Source: Nitrospirota bacterium (lineage in GTDB: Bacteria > Nitrospirota > UBA9217). From it: a stretch of 64,000 bases of DNA. Where the stretch lies: contig CAVVUN010000001.1 of NCBI GenBank assembly GCA_963751455.1, positions 544,001-608,000 of the forward strand, given 5' to 3'. The notes under the pieces are model-generated. The model did not search any database. It saw only the letters and a list, made by a program, of their open reading frames with translations, and had not been told where the DNA came from. Of the stretch, positions 3,366 to 20,393 are shown one piece after another; position 1 is the stretch's first letter; each line of letters opens with the position of its first letter. A program made the position numbers and the translations under genes.

Positions 3366-3390
3366 AATCAGTGCATCCGCTTGTTATGGC
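3366..3390 (-). other. Half attC (truncated)
   Basis: GCCATAACAAGCGGATGCACTGA just after the stop of 3395-6055; no partner arm. Confidence 0.5.
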
Positions 3391-3394
3391 AATC

Positions 3395-6055
3395 TTATCG
3401 TCGATCTATAGAATATGAATAAGATCCACTGGCGGAACCACAACCCATGTTGTTACAACCTATGAATCTGAGCTTAGTCCTCTTGAATTGTCCTGGATTA
3501 GCATAGTACTGAAACGTCCCCGATGGCCCGCTGATTGAACCGTCATTAGATGATGGAGTCGGTGCAGATGGCGTGCTAGGCGTACTGCCGTCATACGTGT
3601 TGACCATCGTATAATAAATTGTCGTGGCACCGCTACTGCCGACGCTGATATTCTGCGGAGATGACGTCCAGCTGCCGCTGGACGGGCTTACCGCGACACT
3701 GCCCGGCACTGTCCTTAAGTCTATCGAGTATGAGTACGATCCGCTTGCTGGTCCGCACCCCGCACTATTGCAACCTATAAACCGGAGCTTGGTTCTCTTG
3801 TGCTGATCAGAGCTTGCGTACAACTGAAACGTTCCGGAAGCTCCGCTGATTGAACCGTCGTTCGAAGAGGGTGACGGCGCATCAGGATCAGAAGGCGCAC
3901 TGCCGTCATACGTGTTGACCATCCTATAATAAATTGTCGTTGCGCCGCTACTGCCGACGCTGATATTCTGCGGAGATGACGTCCAGCTGCCGCTGGACGG
4001 GCTTACCGCGACACTGCCCGGCACTGTCCTTAAGTCTATCGAGTATGAGTACGATCCGCTTGCTGGTCCGCACCCCGCACTATTGCAACCTATAAACCGG
4101 AGCTTGGTTCTCTTGTGCTGATCAGAGCTTGCGTACAACTGAAACGTTCCGGAAGCTCCGCTGATTGAACCGTCGTTCGAAGAGGGTGACGGCGCATCAG
4201 GATCAGAAGGAGTACTGCCGTCATACGTGTTGACCATCCTATAATAAATTGTCGTTGCGCCGCTACTGCCGACGCTGATATTCTGCGGAGATGACGTCCA
4301 GCTGCCGCTGGACGGGCTTACAGATATGCCAGCCGGTATGACTTCAGAATTGACAATAACAGTGTAGTTAACAATATTACTCATCTTACCTGAACTATCC
4401 GCACCCCACCAGGTATAGGTTCCAGCCGGTCGATCCGAAGGTATCGTGTAAGTGATGGAAAACGTTCCATCTGGTTTAATACTCTGCGAAAGAGTTGGGA
4501 ACTCTGAGCCATCGGGCTTCTTAAAATGAAGCACAGCTGTGCTGTTGGGAGTGAAACCTGTGCCCCACTGCGACACTGTATCGGCCTGCTTCGCCGTCAT
4601 CGGAGTCTGAGCAACTGTCGGGGATACTGTTATGCTATCGACAACGGAAAGGACGAAATTCTTCTCTGCTTTTTGTGAATTATTATCGTAAACTTGCACT
4701 GTAAACTGATAAGTTCCGGTATTTGTGGGTATTCCTGAAATCTCACCGCTTGCACTTAAGCTTAGACCTGTTGGCACTATACCGTCAGAAAGTTTCCATG
4801 AGTATGGCCACGAGCCACCTAAAGCTGAAAAACGGAAGTAATGGTAAGCGCCGACTTTACCAACAGATAGAATCTTCGACGTTGAAATTGATATTGGAAG
4901 AGGCTGCGACAAATTGTCAACAGAGATAGCACTATCTCGCTCTGCAATATCACCACTTGAGTCGGTTACAGCTACTGTGAATTGGTAGGTGCCTTGTTGT
5001 GAAGGAGCGCCAGAAATTACACCATCCTTTGATAATGAAATCCCGGGAGGCAGATTGCCTTTAGCAATTGACCATGTATATGGTGGAGTGCCGTCAACTG
5101 CGGACAAAATAAGACTAAAAGCGTTGCCAACAATTAATGACGGGCAATATGACAAACTCCCTTCAACTATACCAACCTTAAAATTCTTATCCTTTTTCGT
5201 AACGCGCAGACCGATTGCTTGGCCACCATTACCCGGAAGCTTACCAACACGCTCCCATTCATCAAGAAAGCTTTTCCTTGTAAAACTCCGTTTATGAGCA
5301 TACGTTTCATATAGCCAGGTCCGTCCGGGATCATTAGCATAAACATAATCTTCGTCAATCCCTACAACTAGCATCCAATGTTGGACGCTCCCTTGCTTCA
5401 TTGTCCCCGGAATCGAGTTATTACCTCCTTGGGAAGAAACTACAACTAAGACAGGGTTTCCGTCTGCTAATTCAGAACGTAGCGCTTCTAATGTTGGCTT
5501 TATGTACTCAACGCTAAAATTACCCTCTTTCTCTAACAACTGTTTCATCTGTTTGTTGTCCGTATAGTCGCCGGTGTATTTATCTCTTCCATATCTTGGT
5601 GGATTATAACCGTCAATATTAGAAATATTGTCAGGATATTGGGGACCCATCCAATCGATCATATTTTTCAGATTTGACCATGCAGTGTCATGATTCGGCG
5701 CGATATCGATGTGATAATGAAATGCTTTTAGCATCAAATAGCTTGCAGGCCCACAGTTCACATTATTTCCATCCGGGCCAGATTCAAATTGAGATATATA
5801 GGGAACATCAAGCGTTTGGCTATCCTTCTTTAATGCGTGCGGCGCCAAAACGGTTTTCGAATAAGTTGAATTTGTCGCGCTATTACCAACAACAGCAACA
5901 AGATCATCATGACTGACTATAACTGCTCCCGCCAATTGAGGCCCATCATCTATAGGATCGCCACTACCGCCACCGTTATGACAAGAAATTAGCAAAAGAC
6001 CAAATAAGAGGAAAAATATGATCCTTCTAACGAGTCTATATTTTTGTCTCATCAA
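3395..6055 (-). CDS. Gene cassette: lipoprotein with C39-like cysteine peptidase domain, two He_PIG/Ig-like domains and three 105-aa repeats
   Basis: Lipobox LLISC; Q...NCGPAS...QHWMLVVG...DP; GTPPYTWS...GNLPPGISLS..G.ISG.P Ig motifs; C-terminal repeats. Confidence 0.8.
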   Translation of the reverse strand: MMRQKYRLVRRIIFFLLFGLLLISCHNGGGSGDPIDDGPQLAGAVIVSHDDLVAVVGNSATNSTYSKTVLAPHALKKDSQTLDVPYISQFESGPDGNNVNCGPASYLMLKAFHYHIDIAPNHDTAWSNLKNMIDWMGPQYPDNISNIDGYNPPRYGRDKYTGDYTDNKQMKQLLEKEGNFSVEYIKPTLEALRSELADGNPVLVVVSSQGGNNSIPGTMKQGSVQHWMLVVGIDEDYVYANDPGRTWLYETYAHKRSFTRKSFLDEWERVGKLPGNGGQAIGLRVTKKDKNFKVGIVEGSLSYCPSLIVGNAFSLILSAVDGTPPYTWSIAKGNLPPGISLSKDGVISGAPSQQGTYQFTVAVTDSSGDIAERDSAISVDNLSQPLPISISTSKILSVGKVGAYHYFRFSALGGSWPYSWKLSDGIVPTGLSLSASGEISGIPTNTGTYQFTVQVYDNNSQKAEKNFVLSVVDSITVSPTVAQTPMTAKQADTVSQWGTGFTPNSTAVLHFKKPDGSEFPTLSQSIKPDGTFSITYTIPSDRPAGTYTWWGADSSGKMSNIVNYTVIVNSEVIPAGISVSPSSGSWTSSPQNISVGSSGATTIYYRMVNTYDGSTPSDPDAPSPSSNDGSISGASGTFQLYASSDQHKRTKLRFIGCNSAGCGPASGSYSYSIDLRTVPGSVAVSPSSGSWTSSPQNISVGSSGATTIYYRMVNTYDGSAPSDPDAPSPSSNDGSISGASGTFQLYASSDQHKRTKLRFIGCNSAGCGPASGSYSYSIDLRTVPGSVAVSPSSGSWTSSPQNISVGSSGATTIYYTMVNTYDGSTPSTPSAPTPSSNDGSISGPSGTFQYYANPGQFKRTKLRFIGCNNMGCGSASGSYSYSIDRR
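3405..4322. repeat. Three 315-bp intragenic tandem repeats
   Basis: gtcatacgtgttgaccatc at 3590, 3905, 4220. Confidence 0.9.
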
Positions 6056-6112
6056 AAACCTTCCCCTTATGCAAGCATCTTACTGACGACGTAGTCTAGG
6101 CATTCAATGTTC

Positions 6113-6371
6113 AATGGGGCGATAACTCGCTGCGCCCGCAGGGCGCGTCGGGTTCATTGCCTGGTTCCAGCGGCGCTTTGTACCGCGTCTCACAGGCAAT
6201 AAGCGAGTTATCGCCCCATTCCAGCGGCGGCTGGAACGTCCCGGATGAGCGGCTGCCCCCGCAGGGGGTAAGTCCGTCTCGATCCGGTTTGATGGCTCGC
6301 GCTGGTTTCGCGCGAGACATCAGGATCGGCCGCTCATCCGGGACGATGGACCGCGCGAAGCGCGGGCCATC
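6113..6371. other. Two tandem ~108-bp structured elements (three-way junctions) plus linker hairpins
   Basis: Perfect IRs 6113-6131/6202-6220 and 6237-6253/6329-6345, each enclosing a GCA-loop hairpin and a longer bulged hairpin. Confidence 0.8.
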
Positions 6372-6422
6372 GCGCGGGTAAGCCGCGTGCTTTTCGCGGC
6401 GGACTTGACCCGCTGGTTGAAA
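6365..6422 (-). other. attC site (one core degenerate, ATC for AAC)
   Basis: gcgcgggtaagccgcgtgcttttcgcggcggacttgacccgctgGTTGAAA, same family as 2598 and 14476; 13 nt from the stop of 6436-7851. Confidence 0.7.
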
Positions 6423-6435
6423 TCCTCGCTGTGTT

Positions 6436-7851
6436 TCATTGACTGGTCAATAAAACACACGGAACGATTGCGTTGGTCATCACCGGATTATATGAGGAGC
6501 GGGTCCAAGTCACTCCGTCCGGGGATGTAGCATAACCGATGTTGTCTTGGGTTCCTACCTGATACCAATACCACATTTTGTACAGACCACCATCGAAAAT
6601 GACATTTGGAACGATTGCGTTCGTCATTACCGGATTATGCGAAGAGCGGGTCCAAGTCACTCCGTCCGGGGATGTAGCATAACCGATGTTGTCTTGGGTT
6701 CCTACCTGATACCAATACCACATTTTGTACAGACCACTATCGAAAATGACATTCGGAACGATTGCGTTCGTCATTACCGGATTATGCGAAGAGCGGGTCC
6801 AAGTCAATCCGTCCGGCGATGTAGCATAACCGATGTTGTCTTGGGTTCCTACCTGATACCAATACCACATTTTGTACAGACCACCATCGAAAATGACATT
6901 TGGAACGATTGCGTTCGTTATTACCGGATTATGCGAAGAGCGGGTCCAAGTCACTCCGTCCGGGGATGTAGCATAACCGATGTTGTCTTGGGTTCCTACC
7001 TGATACCAATACCACATTTTGTACAGACCACTATCGAAAATGACATTCGGAACGATTGCGTTCGTCATTACCGGATTATGCGAAGAGCGGGTCCAAGTCA
7101 ATCCGTCCGGCGATGTAGCATAGCCGATGTTGTCTTGGGTTCCTACCTGATACCAATACCACATACTGAAAACCTTGCCCGTAGCTTCAGGTGTGGTACT
7201 CGTCACCGTTAAGGTATAGGATGTCGTTGAATTATCAGCGGCGGTAACTGTATATAAGACCGGATTTGTGAAGTCGTTCGGCGTTGTACCACTTACCTGA
7301 ATCGCAGAACCAACTTTGACGTTTGCGCCTGTTGTCGTAAAGGTTGCGACGAGTGCGGTAACATTCGTACCATTCGGGACAGTGATGGAGATTGTCTTTG
7401 CTGTTTCATTTATCGATCCTGTTGCAGCAGGGTTTGTGAATGAGAACGCTGTAAGGGCTTTTGCTGAACTGGAGGCTATCGTCACAGTCACAGTGTATGT
7501 TGCAGTTGAGTTATCAGCGGCAGCAACCGTATATGAAACCGGATTTGTGAAGTCGTTCGGCGTTGTACCACTTACCTGAATCGCAGAACCAACTTTGACG
7601 CTTGCGCCTGTTGTCGTAAAGGTTGCGACGAGTGCGGTAACATTCGTACCATTCGGGACAGTGATGGAGATTGTCTTTGCTGTTTCGTTTATTGTTCCTG
7701 TTGCTGCAGGGCTTGTAAAAGAAAAGGCAGTGATTGTTTTTGAACTGTCCGAGTTGCCTCCTCCTGTGCTCGTATTGTTATTTCCGCTGCAAAAAGACAA
7801 AGCAACGCCAACCATTAACATAAAGAAAGCCCATACCATACGTCTAAGCAT
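6436..7851 (-). CDS. Gene cassette: secreted/lipoprotein with two Ig-like (DUF5018-like) repeats and five near-identical 49-aa repeats (five-bladed beta-propeller)
   Basis: Signal/lipobox LSFC; ITAFSF...DFTNPV.YTV.AAD repeat twice; MWY...IGYATSPDG.TW.R...NPV five times. Confidence 0.8.
   Translation of the reverse strand: MLRRMVWAFFMLMVGVALSFCSGNNNTSTGGGNSDSSKTITAFSFTSPAATGTINETAKTISITVPNGTNVTALVATFTTTGASVKVGSAIQVSGTTPNDFTNPVSYTVAAADNSTATYTVTVTIASSSAKALTAFSFTNPAATGSINETAKTISITVPNGTNVTALVATFTTTGANVKVGSAIQVSGTTPNDFTNPVLYTVTAADNSTTSYTLTVTSTTPEATGKVFSMWYWYQVGTQDNIGYATSPDGLTWTRSSHNPVMTNAIVPNVIFDSGLYKMWYWYQVGTQDNIGYATSPDGVTWTRSSHNPVITNAIVPNVIFDGGLYKMWYWYQVGTQDNIGYATSPDGLTWTRSSHNPVMTNAIVPNVIFDSGLYKMWYWYQVGTQDNIGYATSPDGVTWTRSSHNPVMTNAIVPNVIFDGGLYKMWYWYQVGTQDNIGYATSPDGVTWTRSSYNPVMTNAIVPCVLLTSQ
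6450..7165. repeat. Five 147-bp intragenic tandem repeats
   Basis: ttgggttcctacc at 6547, 6694, 6841, 6988, 7135. Confidence 0.95.
7200..7735. repeat. Two 279-bp intragenic repeats
   Basis: ccggatttgtgaagtcgttcgg at 7260 and 7539. Confidence 0.9.
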
Positions 7852-8024: not shown

Positions 8025-8366
8025 TTATCCTATCGGAGAGTCCACTTTATTGAGAATTGGTCGTCGCCCATGTATACTTGTAAATTGATTTAACCAAGTT
8101 CTTTCAAGTTTAGGTAGGTTTTTTGGATTGTAGATTGCAAAGTAGAACCAAATCGCCTTACCTTCTAGTGTTGGATTTGTTTTTTCTGGATTGTCGAGGT
8201 GTTGCTGAAATCTAACGAATAAATTATCCGAAAGTCCAATATATAGGATGTCATTGTCAAACGTAGTAAGAACATAACAACCTGTCTCATTAGGTACTGA
8301 TTTAAACGATGCACGTTTAAAATGTACCTTGTCTTTTGGTAGCGGAATTAGTTCGGTGATCTTCAT
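8025..8366 (-). CDS. GIY-YIG nuclease-family protein
   Basis: GCYVL...LYIGLS...RFQQH...LE...LN motifs; ATGA-type overlap with the upstream gene. Confidence 0.8.
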   Translation of the reverse strand: MKITELIPLPKDKVHFKRASFKSVPNETGCYVLTTFDNDILYIGLSDNLFVRFQQHLDNPEKTNPTLEGKAIWFYFAIYNPKNLPKLERTWLNQFTSIHGRRPILNKVDSPIG

Positions 8367-9502
8367 AATTCCATTTCTTTTTCCGTTTTAATGTCGGATT
8401 GTTTATGAAGCGCCTTCACCATTTCGCTATTTATCTTACTTAATGCGCCAGTATTTAAACCACTTGCAGTACCACTTTTCACCCAGAAATCTGTATGGCC
8501 AACTCCAGCTCCATCACCTTCAACATTTTCAAAAACATTTTCCAATAATGACTGCATCGTTGAAACTTTATAATCGGGCATATTAACCATCTTGTTGTAA
8601 AATGGAACGCAAAATTTAGAGAATAATTCAACTCCATTGTATTTGAATAGAACTGTTGGCTCACTATCGCCGAGAATGTTGGTAATAGCCTTCCAATAGT
8701 TCATGTAAATCCTATGTTGCCTGTCTTCCTTTTCTGTGTTGCAAACAGGATTATTTGCAACTAAAACATATTTCTTAATTGCTTTCACAAAACTCTTCTG
8801 ATTAATACTTCCATCACTATTATCATCATTGGCCATTTTAATTTTATTTTGCCAAGGACTGTCTTTGTCATTGTTTAAAAAATCTACATACTGTAGAGCT
8901 TTTTCATCTTCACCTTTTTGGACTGAATTGAGAATCCATTTTGGTAAATTTGGCGTATCATCGACACCCATTGCTTTTGTTAATCTCGCTCGGATTCTCT
9001 GAGCAACGCCTTCCTCAACACTTTTTTGTGTGGTATTAACAATGAGGAAGTGACACATTTGCGCAATCTCAGAAAGATTAACTGCAATATTGACAGATAC
9101 TTCAAATTCTAGAACACGAGGATCTTTATCAGCCGCCATTTTTAAACCTTCAACACGGTGTTGACCATCAACAACATTGAATGGCCCTACTTCATCGATG
9201 TCTATTTCAATGGTGTTATTATTCGGATGGAATGCTATATTTTTATCCGTTGCAATAAAAATGCTTGTCGGCAAAAATGCATCTTTAGTTTCTTGTCCCG
9301 CAACAATATAGTCGGCAAGCTTTTTTGCTCTTGACTTGTTTAGTAACCGCTGATAACCCTTATCACTAGCATTTTCAGGGTCGAGTCTCTCTATGCTATA
9401 AAAGTTCGGAATTATTAAATCTGAAACTTTTAATGATGTAGCGTAAAGGATCAGATCTCCTTGTTTTACCAAAGAGGCAGGTCTAACGATTTTCTTACTC
9501 AT
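8363..9502 (-). CDS. DGQHR-domain (DndB/ParB-like) protein
   Basis: GYQR...VVDGQHR...INTTQKSV-like motifs; start moved to ATG 9502 behind AAGGAG. Confidence 0.85.
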   Translation of the reverse strand: MSKKIVRPASLVKQGDLILYATSLKVSDLIIPNFYSIERLDPENASDKGYQRLLNKSRAKKLADYIVAGQETKDAFLPTSIFIATDKNIAFHPNNNTIEIDIDEVGPFNVVDGQHRVEGLKMAADKDPRVLEFEVSVNIAVNLSEIAQMCHFLIVNTTQKSVEEGVAQRIRARLTKAMGVDDTPNLPKWILNSVQKGEDEKALQYVDFLNNDKDSPWQNKIKMANDDNSDGSINQKSFVKAIKKYVLVANNPVCNTEKEDRQHRIYMNYWKAITNILGDSEPTVLFKYNGVELFSKFCVPFYNKMVNMPDYKVSTMQSLLENVFENVEGDGAGVGHTDFWVKSGTASGLNTGALSKINSEMVKALHKQSDIKTEKEMEL

Positions 9503-9526
9503 ATTTTCATCTCTCCTTTTTAATGT

Positions 9527-9560
9527 GTCGGCAACAATACTTGTCTCAAAATCAACCAGT
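9527..9560 (-). other. Candidate attI crossover site
   Basis: GTTGCCG core (AAC at 9533-9535) just upstream of the first cassette RBS, between array and divergent intI. Confidence 0.45.
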
Positions 9561-9956
9561 GTTTGATGGGACGGAAACCGCCCCGCCATTTCAGAAAATT
9601 CGGTAATGGCGGGGTGAAAATTAAATATTTTTGTTCAATAATGTAAACTTCTGCAACTGCGGTTTTCGCCTTGCCAAATACTGAATTTCGGAATTGGCAG
9701 GATAAAATTTCTGCAACTTTAAATGCAAATCGAGTATATTTTATGCATTATGGCCTGTCAAGATAAAGTTGTTCAAAGTTGTTGAATATTCGGATCGGAA
9801 TACAACGCGAGAACACCTTTCCCGAATTAAGAAAAACACATGAATGAGACACTCTTATGAATACCAGCATGATGATAGCGTTCTCCTCTTGATAAGTGAA
9901 CATTTGTTCACTATATTATTGTTTATATGGTTCATGAAGCTGTCTGAAGCAACCGT

Positions 9957-11288
9957 TTGATTCTCATACGACCCGTGCAACCCATACCCAAAGATATTCT
10001 GGCTAAATTTGACGGCATTCTGAAACAACGGAATGTCCCCCTTTGCTCCCGATCCGATTACCGGAAGTGGCTGCTGTATTTTCTCGACTTCCGAGCTAAA
10101 TATCCTCTTCCGGAAGGCAAATCGGATCAAGTGAGGGCGTTCGCGGACAAGCTGCGGTCAAAGAATCAATCCTCCATGCAAATAGAGCATGCAGCTAAAG
10201 CGATTTCGCTGTTCTTTGCTTTGCAACAGGGAAAAAAGACTATTTCATCGTCGGCCGCCGCGCAGATTGCGCCTCCTGCAGCCGGGCCGCATTGCGGCCT
10301 ACAGGTAAAATACATCCAAGCACAGCAACTGTGCTCAACAACAGCGACGAAGGAATCCGAGATGGTTTGCGAGCCGCCGGCGCCCTCCGCGCCGTACACG
10401 CCCAGGATCCGGGGCGGCAAACACTACGATGAATGGCGCTGCCTCAAAAAAACCGAATCCCCGGCGTGGGACAAGGTCATTGAAAATCTTGCTGCGGAAA
10501 TAAAGCTGCGGCATTACTCTCGAAAAACGCTCAAGCATTATGCGGACTGGAGCCGCAAGTTCCAGAACTACCTGAAAGACAAACCACCTTCGGAATTGTC
10601 TCCATCGGAGGTGAAGGCGTACCTGACGTATCTGGCCGTGAACTGCAAGGTATCCTCAAGCCACCAGAACCAGGCGTTCAACGCACTCTTGTTTCTGTTC
10701 AGACATGTTTTAAAGACAGATTTCGGCATCCATAAGGACATCCCGCGCGCGAAGAAATCGAATTACATTCCCGTGGTTCTTTCCCGCGAGGAAATCGACG
10801 CTGTTTTGAGACATCTCGAATATCCATACAAGCTTGTGGCCCAACTCCAGTACGGCTGCGGGTTACGCATTTCGGAAGGCTGTAAACTGCGGGTGAAGGA
10901 TTTCAATTTTGACGCCGGCATTCTCACTGTCCGCGGAAAAGGCGATAAAACCCGCACCGTGCCTATTCCGCAAAGAATCGTGCCGGAGCTTCAGGCCCAA
11001 ATAGAGACCGTGAAAAAAATGCATGACGAGGATCTGGCAACAGGGTACGCAGGGGTTTTTCTCGATGATCAACTGGAGAAAAAATATCCACGAGCCGCGA
11101 AGGAGCTTGTCTGGCAATGGTTTCTCCCGAAGCAAACGTTAACCTTTGTTGCGGAAACGAAGGAGCGGCGGCGGTATCATCTTCATGACTCTCATGTTCA
11201 GGATGCGCTGAACGACGCCGTCAGGAGGGCAAAGCTCACTAAGCGCGTTACCTCCCACACCTTCCGTCACTCATTCGCGAACCTTTAG
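9957..11288 (+). pseudogene. intI: Integron integrase, long N-terminal form, 3'-truncated by transposase element
   Basis: IKLRHYSRKT, SSHQNQAFNALLFLF, YGCGLRISE, RGKGDK.R, IntI-specific KYPRA.KELVWQW, HTFRHSFA then immediate stop; LLGH...TMIY (catalytic Tyr) missing. Confidence 0.9.
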
Positions 11289-12157
11289 CGAACCTTTAGG
11301 AACCTTTAGGAACCTTTAGGGTCAAGTCTTTTTCGTTGCATTTTCGTATTCACGAAGCCAGCGGCTGATCGTCGAGTAGTGGACGGCCACATGGCGGGCT
11401 AGTTCACTCTGATGATAACCGTATTTTTCCACGGCCTCGGACACTTTTTTCATCAGTTTGCGATGATTGTTCATGACTGAGTCGGGCAGCAAAACGGCAA
11501 GCGACGGCCGGGTCGAATATCGCTGACTCCGGGGAATTTCGGGAATGTCGATACCCCACTGAACGAACTGGCGATACTCTTTTTCCGCTTTATCTCGTTT
11601 TCTGCTGAATTGACCGAGCACCCAGTCCTTTGTGAGGCAGGGGTGAGATTCAGCTTTACCCGCGGTCGCAAGGTAACTGGACCACTTCCAGCCTTCCGGC
11701 GCTTCGACCATCCTTGCTCTTACCGGATTTAGAACCACATATCGGCAGACCTCAAGGAGATGACTGTCTTTCTGGATCAAGATAGCCTTATACCGGCCCT
11801 GGAATAAATGCCCGGACCTGCCGTGATACTTGTTGAAAAGTTGCGTATACACGCTGTTCAATTGGCGCATACCGAGAGAAAGATTGCCTTCCGGGGTCTC
11901 GATAAGAAGGTGGTAATGATTTGTCATGAGGCAATACGCATGACAGATCCAATTGTACCGCTTGTTGACGTGCTGGACCGTGTTCAGGAAGTTTTCGCGG
12001 TCCTGGTCGTTTTTGAATACGGGCTTCTTTTCGTTACCACGAGAAGTTACGTGATAGACTGCACCGGCATATTCTATTCTTAGAGGTCGGGCCATGGGGC
12101 GACTGTAGCAGAAATCAGAATGAAATGCAACGAAAAAGACTTGACCCTAAAGGTTCC
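11280..12157 (-). mobile_element. HUH/Y1 (RAYT-like) transposase element, copy 2
   Basis: Perfect 35-bp IRs 11309-11343 / 12123-12157; four AACCTTTAG units at 11280, 11291, 11301, 11311. Confidence 0.85.
11322..12095 (-). CDS. Y1/HUH transposase, copy 2 (32-aa in-frame internal deletion)
   Basis: Near-identical to 1594-2463 but lacking GKKTIW...KKHK. Confidence 0.9.
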   Translation of the reverse strand: MARPLRIEYAGAVYHVTSRGNEKKPVFKNDQDRENFLNTVQHVNKRYNWICHAYCLMTNHYHLLIETPEGNLSLGMRQLNSVYTQLFNKYHGRSGHLFQGRYKAILIQKDSHLLEVCRYVVLNPVRARMVEAPEGWKWSSYLATAGKAESHPCLTKDWVLGQFSRKRDKAEKEYRQFVQWGIDIPEIPRSQRYSTRPSLAVLLPDSVMNNHRKLMKKVSEAVEKYGYHQSELARHVAVHYSTISRWLREYENATKKT

Positions 12158-19972: not shown

Positions 19973-20393
19973 TCTTTAATTTTGAGTCAATGTTTGAGAA
20001 ACAAAAAAGTACCAAATGAGTCAATAATATTATCCGCGGATTGCGCAGATTTCGTCGATTAAAACCAACGCCTGATTTAATTTGTTCTATTTAAAAATCT
20101 GCGGATATCTGCGAAATCTGCGGATAAAGCTTTTAAAAATTCCAGTTTTGCTTCATCGGTCTCAGACGTTTTCCCCGTTAAAAACCTTTACTTCGCATTA
20201 TCTTTAAATTTGAGTCAAGTTTTTGAGAAGCTAAAAAGCGTTTACCGCGAAGGCGCGAGGAGCGCGAAGGAAACCATACGACAAAATCTTATTTCTGGTT
20301 TAAACCCGTTTCAATTCCTGCTTTCCTCGCGTCCTTCGCGCCTTCGCGGTTCCAAGGTATTTTTTTCATCGGTCTGAGGCCTTGCCTCGTTAA
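19973..20393. repeat. Two tandem ~200-bp MITE-like units with shared flanks but different internal palindromes
   Basis: Shared tctttaa..ttgagtcaa..tttgagaa..aaaaag head (19973, 20201) and ttcatcggtct...gttaa tail (20152, 20365). Confidence 0.7.

Follow-up and report, generated by a model that had tools for sequence, protein, structure and literature searches.

Gene-less integron cassettes composed of an attC site and its inverted copy: a mobile family predicted to mask its own recombination site

The window, by which we mean the whole stretch of 64,000 nt analysed here, contains two adjacent short elements that are almost certainly IntI cassettes. One structured unit together with the hairpin that trails it makes up a single gene-less integron cassette of ~128 bp, with its ends at the integrase crossovers. 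We favour the view, with a probability of about 0.6, that such an element is a selfish cassette that locks itself in, going into an array more easily than it comes out. A preliminary description had seen a new structured module in the pair. That proposal stands insofar as the element is conserved, covarying, rich in homologues and absent from Rfam, but it does not constitute a separate new kind, as it is a variant of the integron cassette and not a new RNA. Among the roles then offered, single-stranded DNA recombination substrate was the right one.

The region is an integron, with attCs on the + strand and cassette genes on the − strand. Its integrase gene (intI; 9957–11288, + strand) is cut short before the C-terminal part; it ends beyond the RHS motif, at the border with a RAYT/Y1 gene. 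The two other long intI genes of the genome carry a ~105-bp insert with a stop (G000:C2:447005-448669) and a frameshift (G000:C3:356533-358123); all three look interrupted, and the arrays may be frozen. The cassette region holds two near-identical RAYT/Y1_Tnp-HTH genes (1594–2463 and, at the intI break, 11322–12095), both of which end in several short tandem repeats of an 8–10-nt word. The attI-like junction of the array probably lies at 9554–9556, and its sequence recurs after the C3 copy of the element. The first cassette behind this junction (8025–9589) consists of a DndB/GmrSD_N-like gene and a small GIY-YIG gene, possibly a defence pair. Downstream of the two mini-cassettes, and outside the element, lies an 886-aa gene (3395–6055, − strand; cassette begins at 6114) with C39 peptidase-like and Ig domains and an apparent half attC near its end (3372–3392). 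Upstream is a 471-aa cassette whose ORF (6436–7851, − strand) is DUF5018 lipoprotein-like, and both mini-cassettes sit behind its ordinary attC (6369–6422, + strand). Both neighbours are exceptionally long for cassette genes and contain internal tandem repeats (units of 315 bp and of 147/279 bp). The genome also contains a separate dispersed 107-bp inverted-repeat family, MITE- or REP-like, with near-identical copies on several contigs (G000:C1:1141-1247, 326912-327017, window 20244-20350 and others).

The structures at 6113–6220 and 6237–6345 are as initially described, with perfect closing stems of 19 and 17 bp and GCA triloops, and they are followed by small hairpins (6219–6236 and 6346–6370) and then by the attC at 6369–6422. 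The natural units are nevertheless 6115–6236 and 6237–6370, trailing hairpins included. In bottom-strand reading, an attC takes up the 5′ half of each unit, its core triplet set off from L′ by a 5–6-nt spacer and the GCA hairpin and linker making its terminal loop; the 3′ half is the reverse complement of the attC arms, lacking the attC loop and the unpaired spacer. The order is R′-L′-loop-L″-R″, hairpin loop, anti-R″/L″/L′/R′ and closing hairpin, whose last bases are the AA (or AT) of the core of the following attC.

Cassette 1 (6115–6236, 122 bp) has its top strand on the − strand and its recombining bottom strand on the + strand, with crossovers at 6114/6115 (left, AA|T) and 6236/6237 (right, AA|C). 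Its attC (6113–6170, + strand) is formed by R′ AAT (6113–6115), L′ GATAACT (6121–6127), the terminal-loop hairpin GCGCCC-GCA-GGGCGC (6132–6146), L″ (6151–6158) and R″ GTTCCAG (6164–6170). The GATAAC/GTTATC motifs previously taken for the attC cores of this unit are the L′ box and its inverted copy, the true R″ being the GTTCCAG at 6164. R″ (GTTCCAGC) agrees with the cassette's own start, TTCCAGC, at 7/7 positions after the first base. The extrahelical base at 6155 is C here and G in the close relatives L038, L040 and L046. The inverted copy of the arms (6193–6220, + strand; anti-L″ 6193–6202, anti-L′/R′ 6202–6220), without terminal loop and unpaired spacer, builds the 19-bp closing stem and the outer part of the long hairpin. 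The closing hairpin (6219–6236, + strand; 7-bp stem, 4-nt loop) is a shortened form of the GAA hairpin of the family and includes the AA of the next attC's R box.

Cassette 2 (6237–6370, − strand, 134 bp) is a GAT/ATC core variant with its right crossover, AT|C, at 6370/6371. It was thought to be without attC cores, but it does hold an attC (6235–6297, + strand), with GAT in place of GTT as its core. Here R′ AAC (6235–6237) and L′ GATGAGC (6244–6250) precede the hairpin CCCCC-GCA-GGGGG (6256–6268), an extrahelical G (6281) and R″ GATGGCT (6291–6297); the L boxes read GATGAG/CTC-G-ATC, and R″ (GATGGCTC) agrees with the cassette's own start. The inverted copy of the arms (6312–6345, + strand) comprises anti-R″/L″ (6312–6328) and anti-L′/R′ (6329–6345), the latter being the 17-bp closing stem, and the closing hairpin (6346–6370, + strand) carries a C-GAA-G triloop at 6357–6359. 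In neither unit does the outer stem fit the site of a single long attC, as the outer stems are perfect 19- and 17-bp duplexes without extrahelical bases or spacer. The idea that the stems diverge while remaining paired is borne out by covariation in the family, but the units are 58% identical across the whole cassette and are, as judged from this similarity, diverged relatives and not unrelated sequences. Two ORFs, 6111–6320 (−) and 6157–6381 (+), span both units and could not be conserved in single copies; we take them as shadows.

An nhmmer search seeded with nine copies gave 15 matches in the genome, 11 near-full and four partial. A covariance model, limited to seven of these 11 copies because the MAFFT rows were out of register, retrieved many further homologues, with matches in 19 of 60 relatives (17 of 36 within the same family) and in other phyla. 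Furthermore, a pattern scan of species genomes returned 88 stretches; 80 were listed, among which 51 had a model match and the 29 without one were dropped. Because the end, the GTT core and the GAA loop were built into the scan pattern, its loci are selected for these features. According to their record names, the pattern loci with a model match come from Nitrospirota, Deltaproteobacteria/Desulfobacteria, Nitrospinota, Ca. Brocadia, Ca. Methylomirabilis, Patescibacteria and Pseudomonadota, labels that stem mostly from metagenome bins, so that single assignments may be wrong. One genome (G061) contains 22 matches, interspersed with ordinary cassettes, and matches also occur in eight of 120 further genomes from its phylum. 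The statistics below rest on an alignment of 94 matches. These came from 84 sources, namely the window and 83 of 128 loci, after duplicates, loci without a match and partial copies had been left out; with unit 1 added, 88 distinct sequences were kept, 71 of them intact. The elements are 117–139 bp long, with a pairwise identity of 70% (median; minimum 54%), at which layout and exact junction register persist. The tandem arrangement, once regarded as a property of the module, is incidental, the window having the only directly adjacent full-length pair among 95 copies examined. No pattern match was found in viral contigs and no element in phages; plasmids gave three partial Streptomyces matches over 21% of the query, taken as chance; a second family member had no plasmid match. 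No Rfam family reaches its gathering threshold in the window, and the three weak matches within 6000–6500 are at chance level (best 21.4 bits against a threshold of 37.6).

Decayed and deleted copies are common, and a metagenome scan with a unit-2-type pattern found two stretches, both being the same decayed copy fused to an attC arm. Some remnants consist of the closing hairpin only, or of both ends (G000:C1:299296-299326, L029, L138, L153, L161, L163), and stand in front of an attC or an attI-like site; the palindrome of the element thus appears, from such sequences, to decay by internal deletion. A 78-nt form, L047 (G024:C3:90583-90662), consists of an attC and the closing hairpin at an attI-like junction and is unmasked; it may be either an ancestor or a deletion product of the family. 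It is the one unmasked form among 39 matches in relatives, and 16 new hairpin-only pattern matches contained no other, the model itself favouring the masked form. Longer variants are L172 (G061:C71:1031-1185; ~155 nt, GAT core, long terminal loop) and L173 (G063:C99:22528-22686; ~159 nt, extra hairpin in the middle loop). L104:851-974 lacks the closing hairpin, and 11 nt of its left flank have been drawn into the inverted repeat, the outcome expected of template switching. Truncation at a top-strand crossover was also considered; two of 18 inspected copies (L007, L104) are suggestive, which does not establish it.

The ends and the internal anatomy of these elements are those of integron cassettes. 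With our attC descriptor, the element's own attC scores ≥14 in 76 of the 88 distinct copies. An attC begins precisely at the right junction in at least 50 of 87 copies, compared with 6 of 600 control positions; the junction counts are minimum values, since the descriptor misses some visible attCs. About 18 of 95 copies end, as read by eye, at an AT-rich attI-like junction, and in six of these an intI reading frame starts 115–187 nt beyond it. The elements are oriented as the array and lie at the crossover of an attI or attC. Among the 71 intact copies, the core-to-L-box spacing is 8/8, 9/8 or 9/9, the R″ core is GTT in 61 and GAT in 10, and an extrahelical G stands on the arm opposite AAC in 68, window unit 1 having C. 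R″ positions 4–7 match the element's own start at all four positions in 53 of 71 copies, a match partly selected by the scan pattern, and the neighbour's start in none of 71. The cores covary: an R″ GAT goes with AT| in 10/10 copies and an R″ GTT with AA| in 60/61, and one copy (L041) has a GCT/AGC variant. The second core position was indeed reported to be tolerant (Frumerie 2010, PMC2811028). The first exchanged base, the third of R′, is T in 46 and C in 25 intact copies; among the candidate attCs of the genome (n = 57), 38 have AAC and 2 AAT. A T here makes a G-T wobble in the attC fold where the partners should match. At five of 71 right junctions, the ordinary attC behind the element also has T for C at the first base, as if copied from the element during exchange.

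The element moves as a unit, as near-identical copies have unrelated flanks and an independent soil contig leaves the element at the crossover. In all 84 pairs that are at least 94% identical, including pairs of 97–100% from records of different phyla, the left flanks are unrelated; right flanks are common in only three of the 84, which sit at similar attI. The soil contig matches 6270–6371 with two differences and turns attI-like exactly after the predicted crossover. Comparison of sequences thus shows the anatomy, the crossover ends, the independence of the flanks, the independent mobility and the high copy number. A fixed neighbour gene with which the element hitch-hikes is rejected by the unrelated flanks, and insertion into attCs whose R′ and R″ still match is clear in one copy (C1:28338) and not general. 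In one DNA run and one contig, we saw no excised circle, empty site or end-to-start joint, and a sequencing-run look-up listed no RNA run as holding the element. An intI above the family cut-off occurs in 10 of 19 element-bearing relatives compared with 8 of 41 without the element, kin that are not independent, and is missing from the other nine element-bearing ones.

On either strand, both units give a three-way junction when folded, with z = −7.8 to −10.5 for RNA and −7.5 to −9.8 for DNA, and none of 200 shuffles of 6113–6220 or 6237–6345 is as stable. In the family, this fold is 91.8% paired with 553 double changes (149 in shuffles), and the closing stem is 97% paired with double changes at 15/15 pairs, the alignment being fitted to the fold in both cases. 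The attC and R″/end pairs were left out of the covariance model, so that the alignment is not fitted to them; they are 87.5% paired with 189 double changes (55 in shuffles; slid controls 33–63% paired), the number of pairs with a double change not being above shuffles (82/500). RNAalifold, run on the first alignment, returned the attC fold with R″/end pairing rather than the three-way junction. C-GNA-G loops lie on the attC bottom strand 253 times, compared with 20 for the reverse complement, and are of a stable DNA mini-hairpin type (PMC13037366, PMC3201870). Together with the lack of any ORF above 30 aa (the longest complete ATG ORF is 0–30 aa in 88 units), this strand bias points to a DNA rather than an RNA element.

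Modelling predicts that the element hides its own attC and part of the neighbouring attC, its R box. With DNA energies, the median probability of the attC pairs is 0.49 for the isolated site but drops to 1.5e-9 once the element is integrated and to 3e-11 when it is circular; it is below 0.001 in 70 of 71 full elements and above 0.1 in 67 of 71 attCs taken alone. Forcing the attC pairs costs a median of 13.0 kcal/mol (integrated) and 15.7 kcal/mol (circle), junction energies from ViennaRNA being rough, and the attC is not the favoured bottom-strand fold of the element in this model. For the upstream attC beside an element, the median R-box pairing is 0.0015 (n = 24; 2/24 above 0.1), compared with 0.61 for ordinary attCs (n = 32; 24/32 above 0.1), and the same 24 sites reach 0.28 when folded in isolation. 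When the bottom strand is grown 5′ to 3′, the attC fold dominates up to ~72–96 nt and then collapses (four copies). Circles joined at the crossover form a dumbbell with a side hairpin in 10 of 11 genome copies, the eleventh keeping the attC fold, and the helix is continuous over the circle junction in 66 of 71 copies.

We propose that IntI would move the element through the attC fold. This fold may be available to the integrase for a limited time on the lagging-strand template, a kinetic window, or integrase binding may impose it. The lagging-strand window would presumably follow from helicase polarity. Two folds would then compete, the attC fold and a masked fold that is 13–16 kcal/mol more stable in the model and that, joined at the crossover, would form a closed dumbbell with its helix running across the junction. 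After release, branch migration into the masked fold would remove the attC, and the closing hairpin would capture the AA of the R box belonging to the upstream attC. Such refolding would act as a ratchet against re-excision, and in the masked state the free circle would be protected from nucleases and single-strand binding protein. Low folding probability has been tied to low excision, which drops or vanishes at attC folding probabilities of 1e-5 and lower (Loot 2017, PMC5371416). This link supports the lock, but it makes the evident mobility a puzzle: the predicted equilibrium attC fold is far below the values of Loot, so that mobility would need the kinetic window or integrase-driven refolding. 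The T at the first exchanged base would pair with A in the masked fold and wobble with G in the attC fold, and could thereby prevent the masked duplex from serving as a partner, the attC fold remaining functional. Perfect inverted repeats can also stay matched by template switching without selection. A more far-reaching version, which we put forward tentatively and regard as doubtful, is a gene-less integron parasite whose free form would be a closed 120–140-nt single-stranded dumbbell, in which the switch between an integrase-readable attC and the locked fold would be a one-way ratchet freezing neighbouring cassettes; it would travel between phyla as a stable molecule and, by leaving attCs behind genes before itself decaying, may feed new cassettes.

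Other explanations differ in who benefits from the masking, if anyone, and in which form recombines. The element could be a brake or insulator useful to the host, because masking two attCs would freeze useful neighbours or because 128 untranslated structured bases would lower downstream expression. The predicted masking of both attCs fits this, as do reports that attC sites of low folding probability slow cassette loss (PMC5371416), that poorly translated cassettes cut downstream expression (PMC11511950) and that gene-less Vibrio cassettes have promoter (regulatory) activity (10.1101/2023.11.21.568050). We nonetheless consider it unlikely, since the element has no fixed partner gene, a top-strand run of five T is absent from all 88 units, and up to 22 matches per genome with near-identical copies across phyla fit selfish spread; nor was there a sigma-70 promoter or terminator match in 6040–6460, a type of scan described as predicting gene-less cassettes poorly (10.1101/2023.11.21.568050). 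Masking might instead have no selected function, if an empty attC-plus-hairpin cassette was duplicated inverted, perhaps repeatedly, by top-strand recombination or fold-back replication, and its arms were kept matched by template switching. In favour, the element has the look of a minimal cassette dimerised in inverted orientation, the unmasked L047 exists, the repeat is extended in L104, the L-box classes of elements overlap those of ordinary attCs, and loss of extrahelical bases was reported to permit top-strand recombination (PMC5027507). Such a neutral origin is improbable given that masked copies far outnumber unmasked ones, that layout and register are kept despite the divergence of the family, and that all 10 tested element attC bodies are closest to another element (83–100%) rather than to an ordinary genome attC (60–75%).

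That the dumbbell is itself the recombining form, its duplex across the junction acting as a double-stranded attG- or attI-like site that inserts into folded attCs, would accord with its place as the predicted equilibrium fold of the circle, with the crossover lying within a continuous helix in 66/71 copies, with most copies standing directly behind an attC, and with the recombination by IntI of double-stranded GWT attG with attC (10.1101/2022.09.11.507474). It is distinctly improbable: the ~18 of 95 copies at attI-like junctions would need duplex-by-duplex recombination, reported as 3–4 orders less frequent (PMC4792948), the A-T first pair in 46/71 would lower recombination with standard sites 1e3–1e4-fold (PMC2811028), and this route would not need the kept extrahelical G or the L′/L″ pairing. 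Very unlikely is a structured RNA (an sRNA, a protein decoy or a cis-regulator of the 886-aa gene) or a REP/REPIN-like RAYT substrate. Some element hairpins resemble what we take to be REP-like motifs, this array has two RAYT genes, covariation is strong, both strands fold as well as RNA, and an sRNA cassette is known in Xanthomonas (10.1101/2025.06.18.660453). Against this, Rfam gives no match at gathering level, the ends coincide with integrase crossovers and the triloops on the attC bottom strand are of DNA type. The suggested regulation of the 886-aa gene finds no support, near-identical family members having unrelated neighbours, nor does the suggested HUH/Y1 substrate, with a RAYT match in 1 of 136 loci compared with intI matches in 11 of 136; neither RAYT gene of the window adjoins a copy.

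Integron cassettes are taken to be a gene plus a recombination tag, and this family is the tag alone with a built-in switch. If masking works as predicted, the self-locking cassette would be a natural portable off-switch for attC recombination that could fix cassette order, would allow replication-fork folding kinetics to be tested against equilibrium folding in attC use, and would be evidence for the old idea of selfish non-coding cassettes. The element can be tested directly, since nature supplies GTT, GAT and GCT cores, either C or T at the exchanged base, and both masked and unmasked forms; attC finders may mis-score or miss its sites.

By every sequence test except the favoured fold, the element is of the attC-cassette kind. 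It shares with described attC cassettes (PMC5027507, PMC2811028, PMC5371416) the R′/R″ cores, the L boxes, the extrahelical G, the spacer and the bottom-strand terminal loop, as well as an R″ complementary to its own start, a place behind attI or attC and a variable second core base. It differs in having no gene, in carrying an inverted copy of its own attC as cargo, in a first exchanged base that is mostly T, and in a predicted attC folding probability of ~1e-9, whereas most sites exceed 0.1 and the lowest reported lie at 1e-5 to 1e-7 (PMC5371416). In the literature searched, which included few subscription papers, we found no cassette carrying an inverted duplicate of its own attC. ORF-less cassettes have been described as non-coding families in Vibrio, for which a selfish nature was raised (PMC1382264), as promoter cassettes in Vibrionaceae and Treponema (10.1101/2023.11.21.568050; PMC8876359), as the 'empty' SuezGC14.1, which has an attC only (PMC3146285), and as a recurrent 'empty' cassette in Xanthomonas (10.1101/2025.06.18.660453). 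Like these, the element has no ORF and often occurs in several copies per genome; unlike them, it is short and nearly all paired, has no promoter motif, crosses phyla and carries an anti-attC. From the Suez and Xanthomonas cassettes it is set apart by their descriptions, not their sequences, and it could be identical to them. With attG/SALIN (10.1101/2022.09.11.507474), where IntI acts on double-stranded GWT sites, it has in common isolated cassettes outside full integrons, but the element makes the core-bearing duplex itself and most of its copies lie within arrays. It resembles REP/REPIN and MITEs in being short, non-autonomous, multi-copy hairpin DNA dependent on a recombinase in trans. Those are likewise moved by a trans-acting single-strand recombinase, RAYT in the case of REP/REPIN, which have a conserved terminal tetranucleotide, are cleaved by RAYT and occur in copies that flank the RAYT gene. 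The ends of the present element are instead IntI crossovers, and linkage of its loci is to intI and attC rather than to RAYT; in its behaviour it is comparable to a non-autonomous hairpin parasite.
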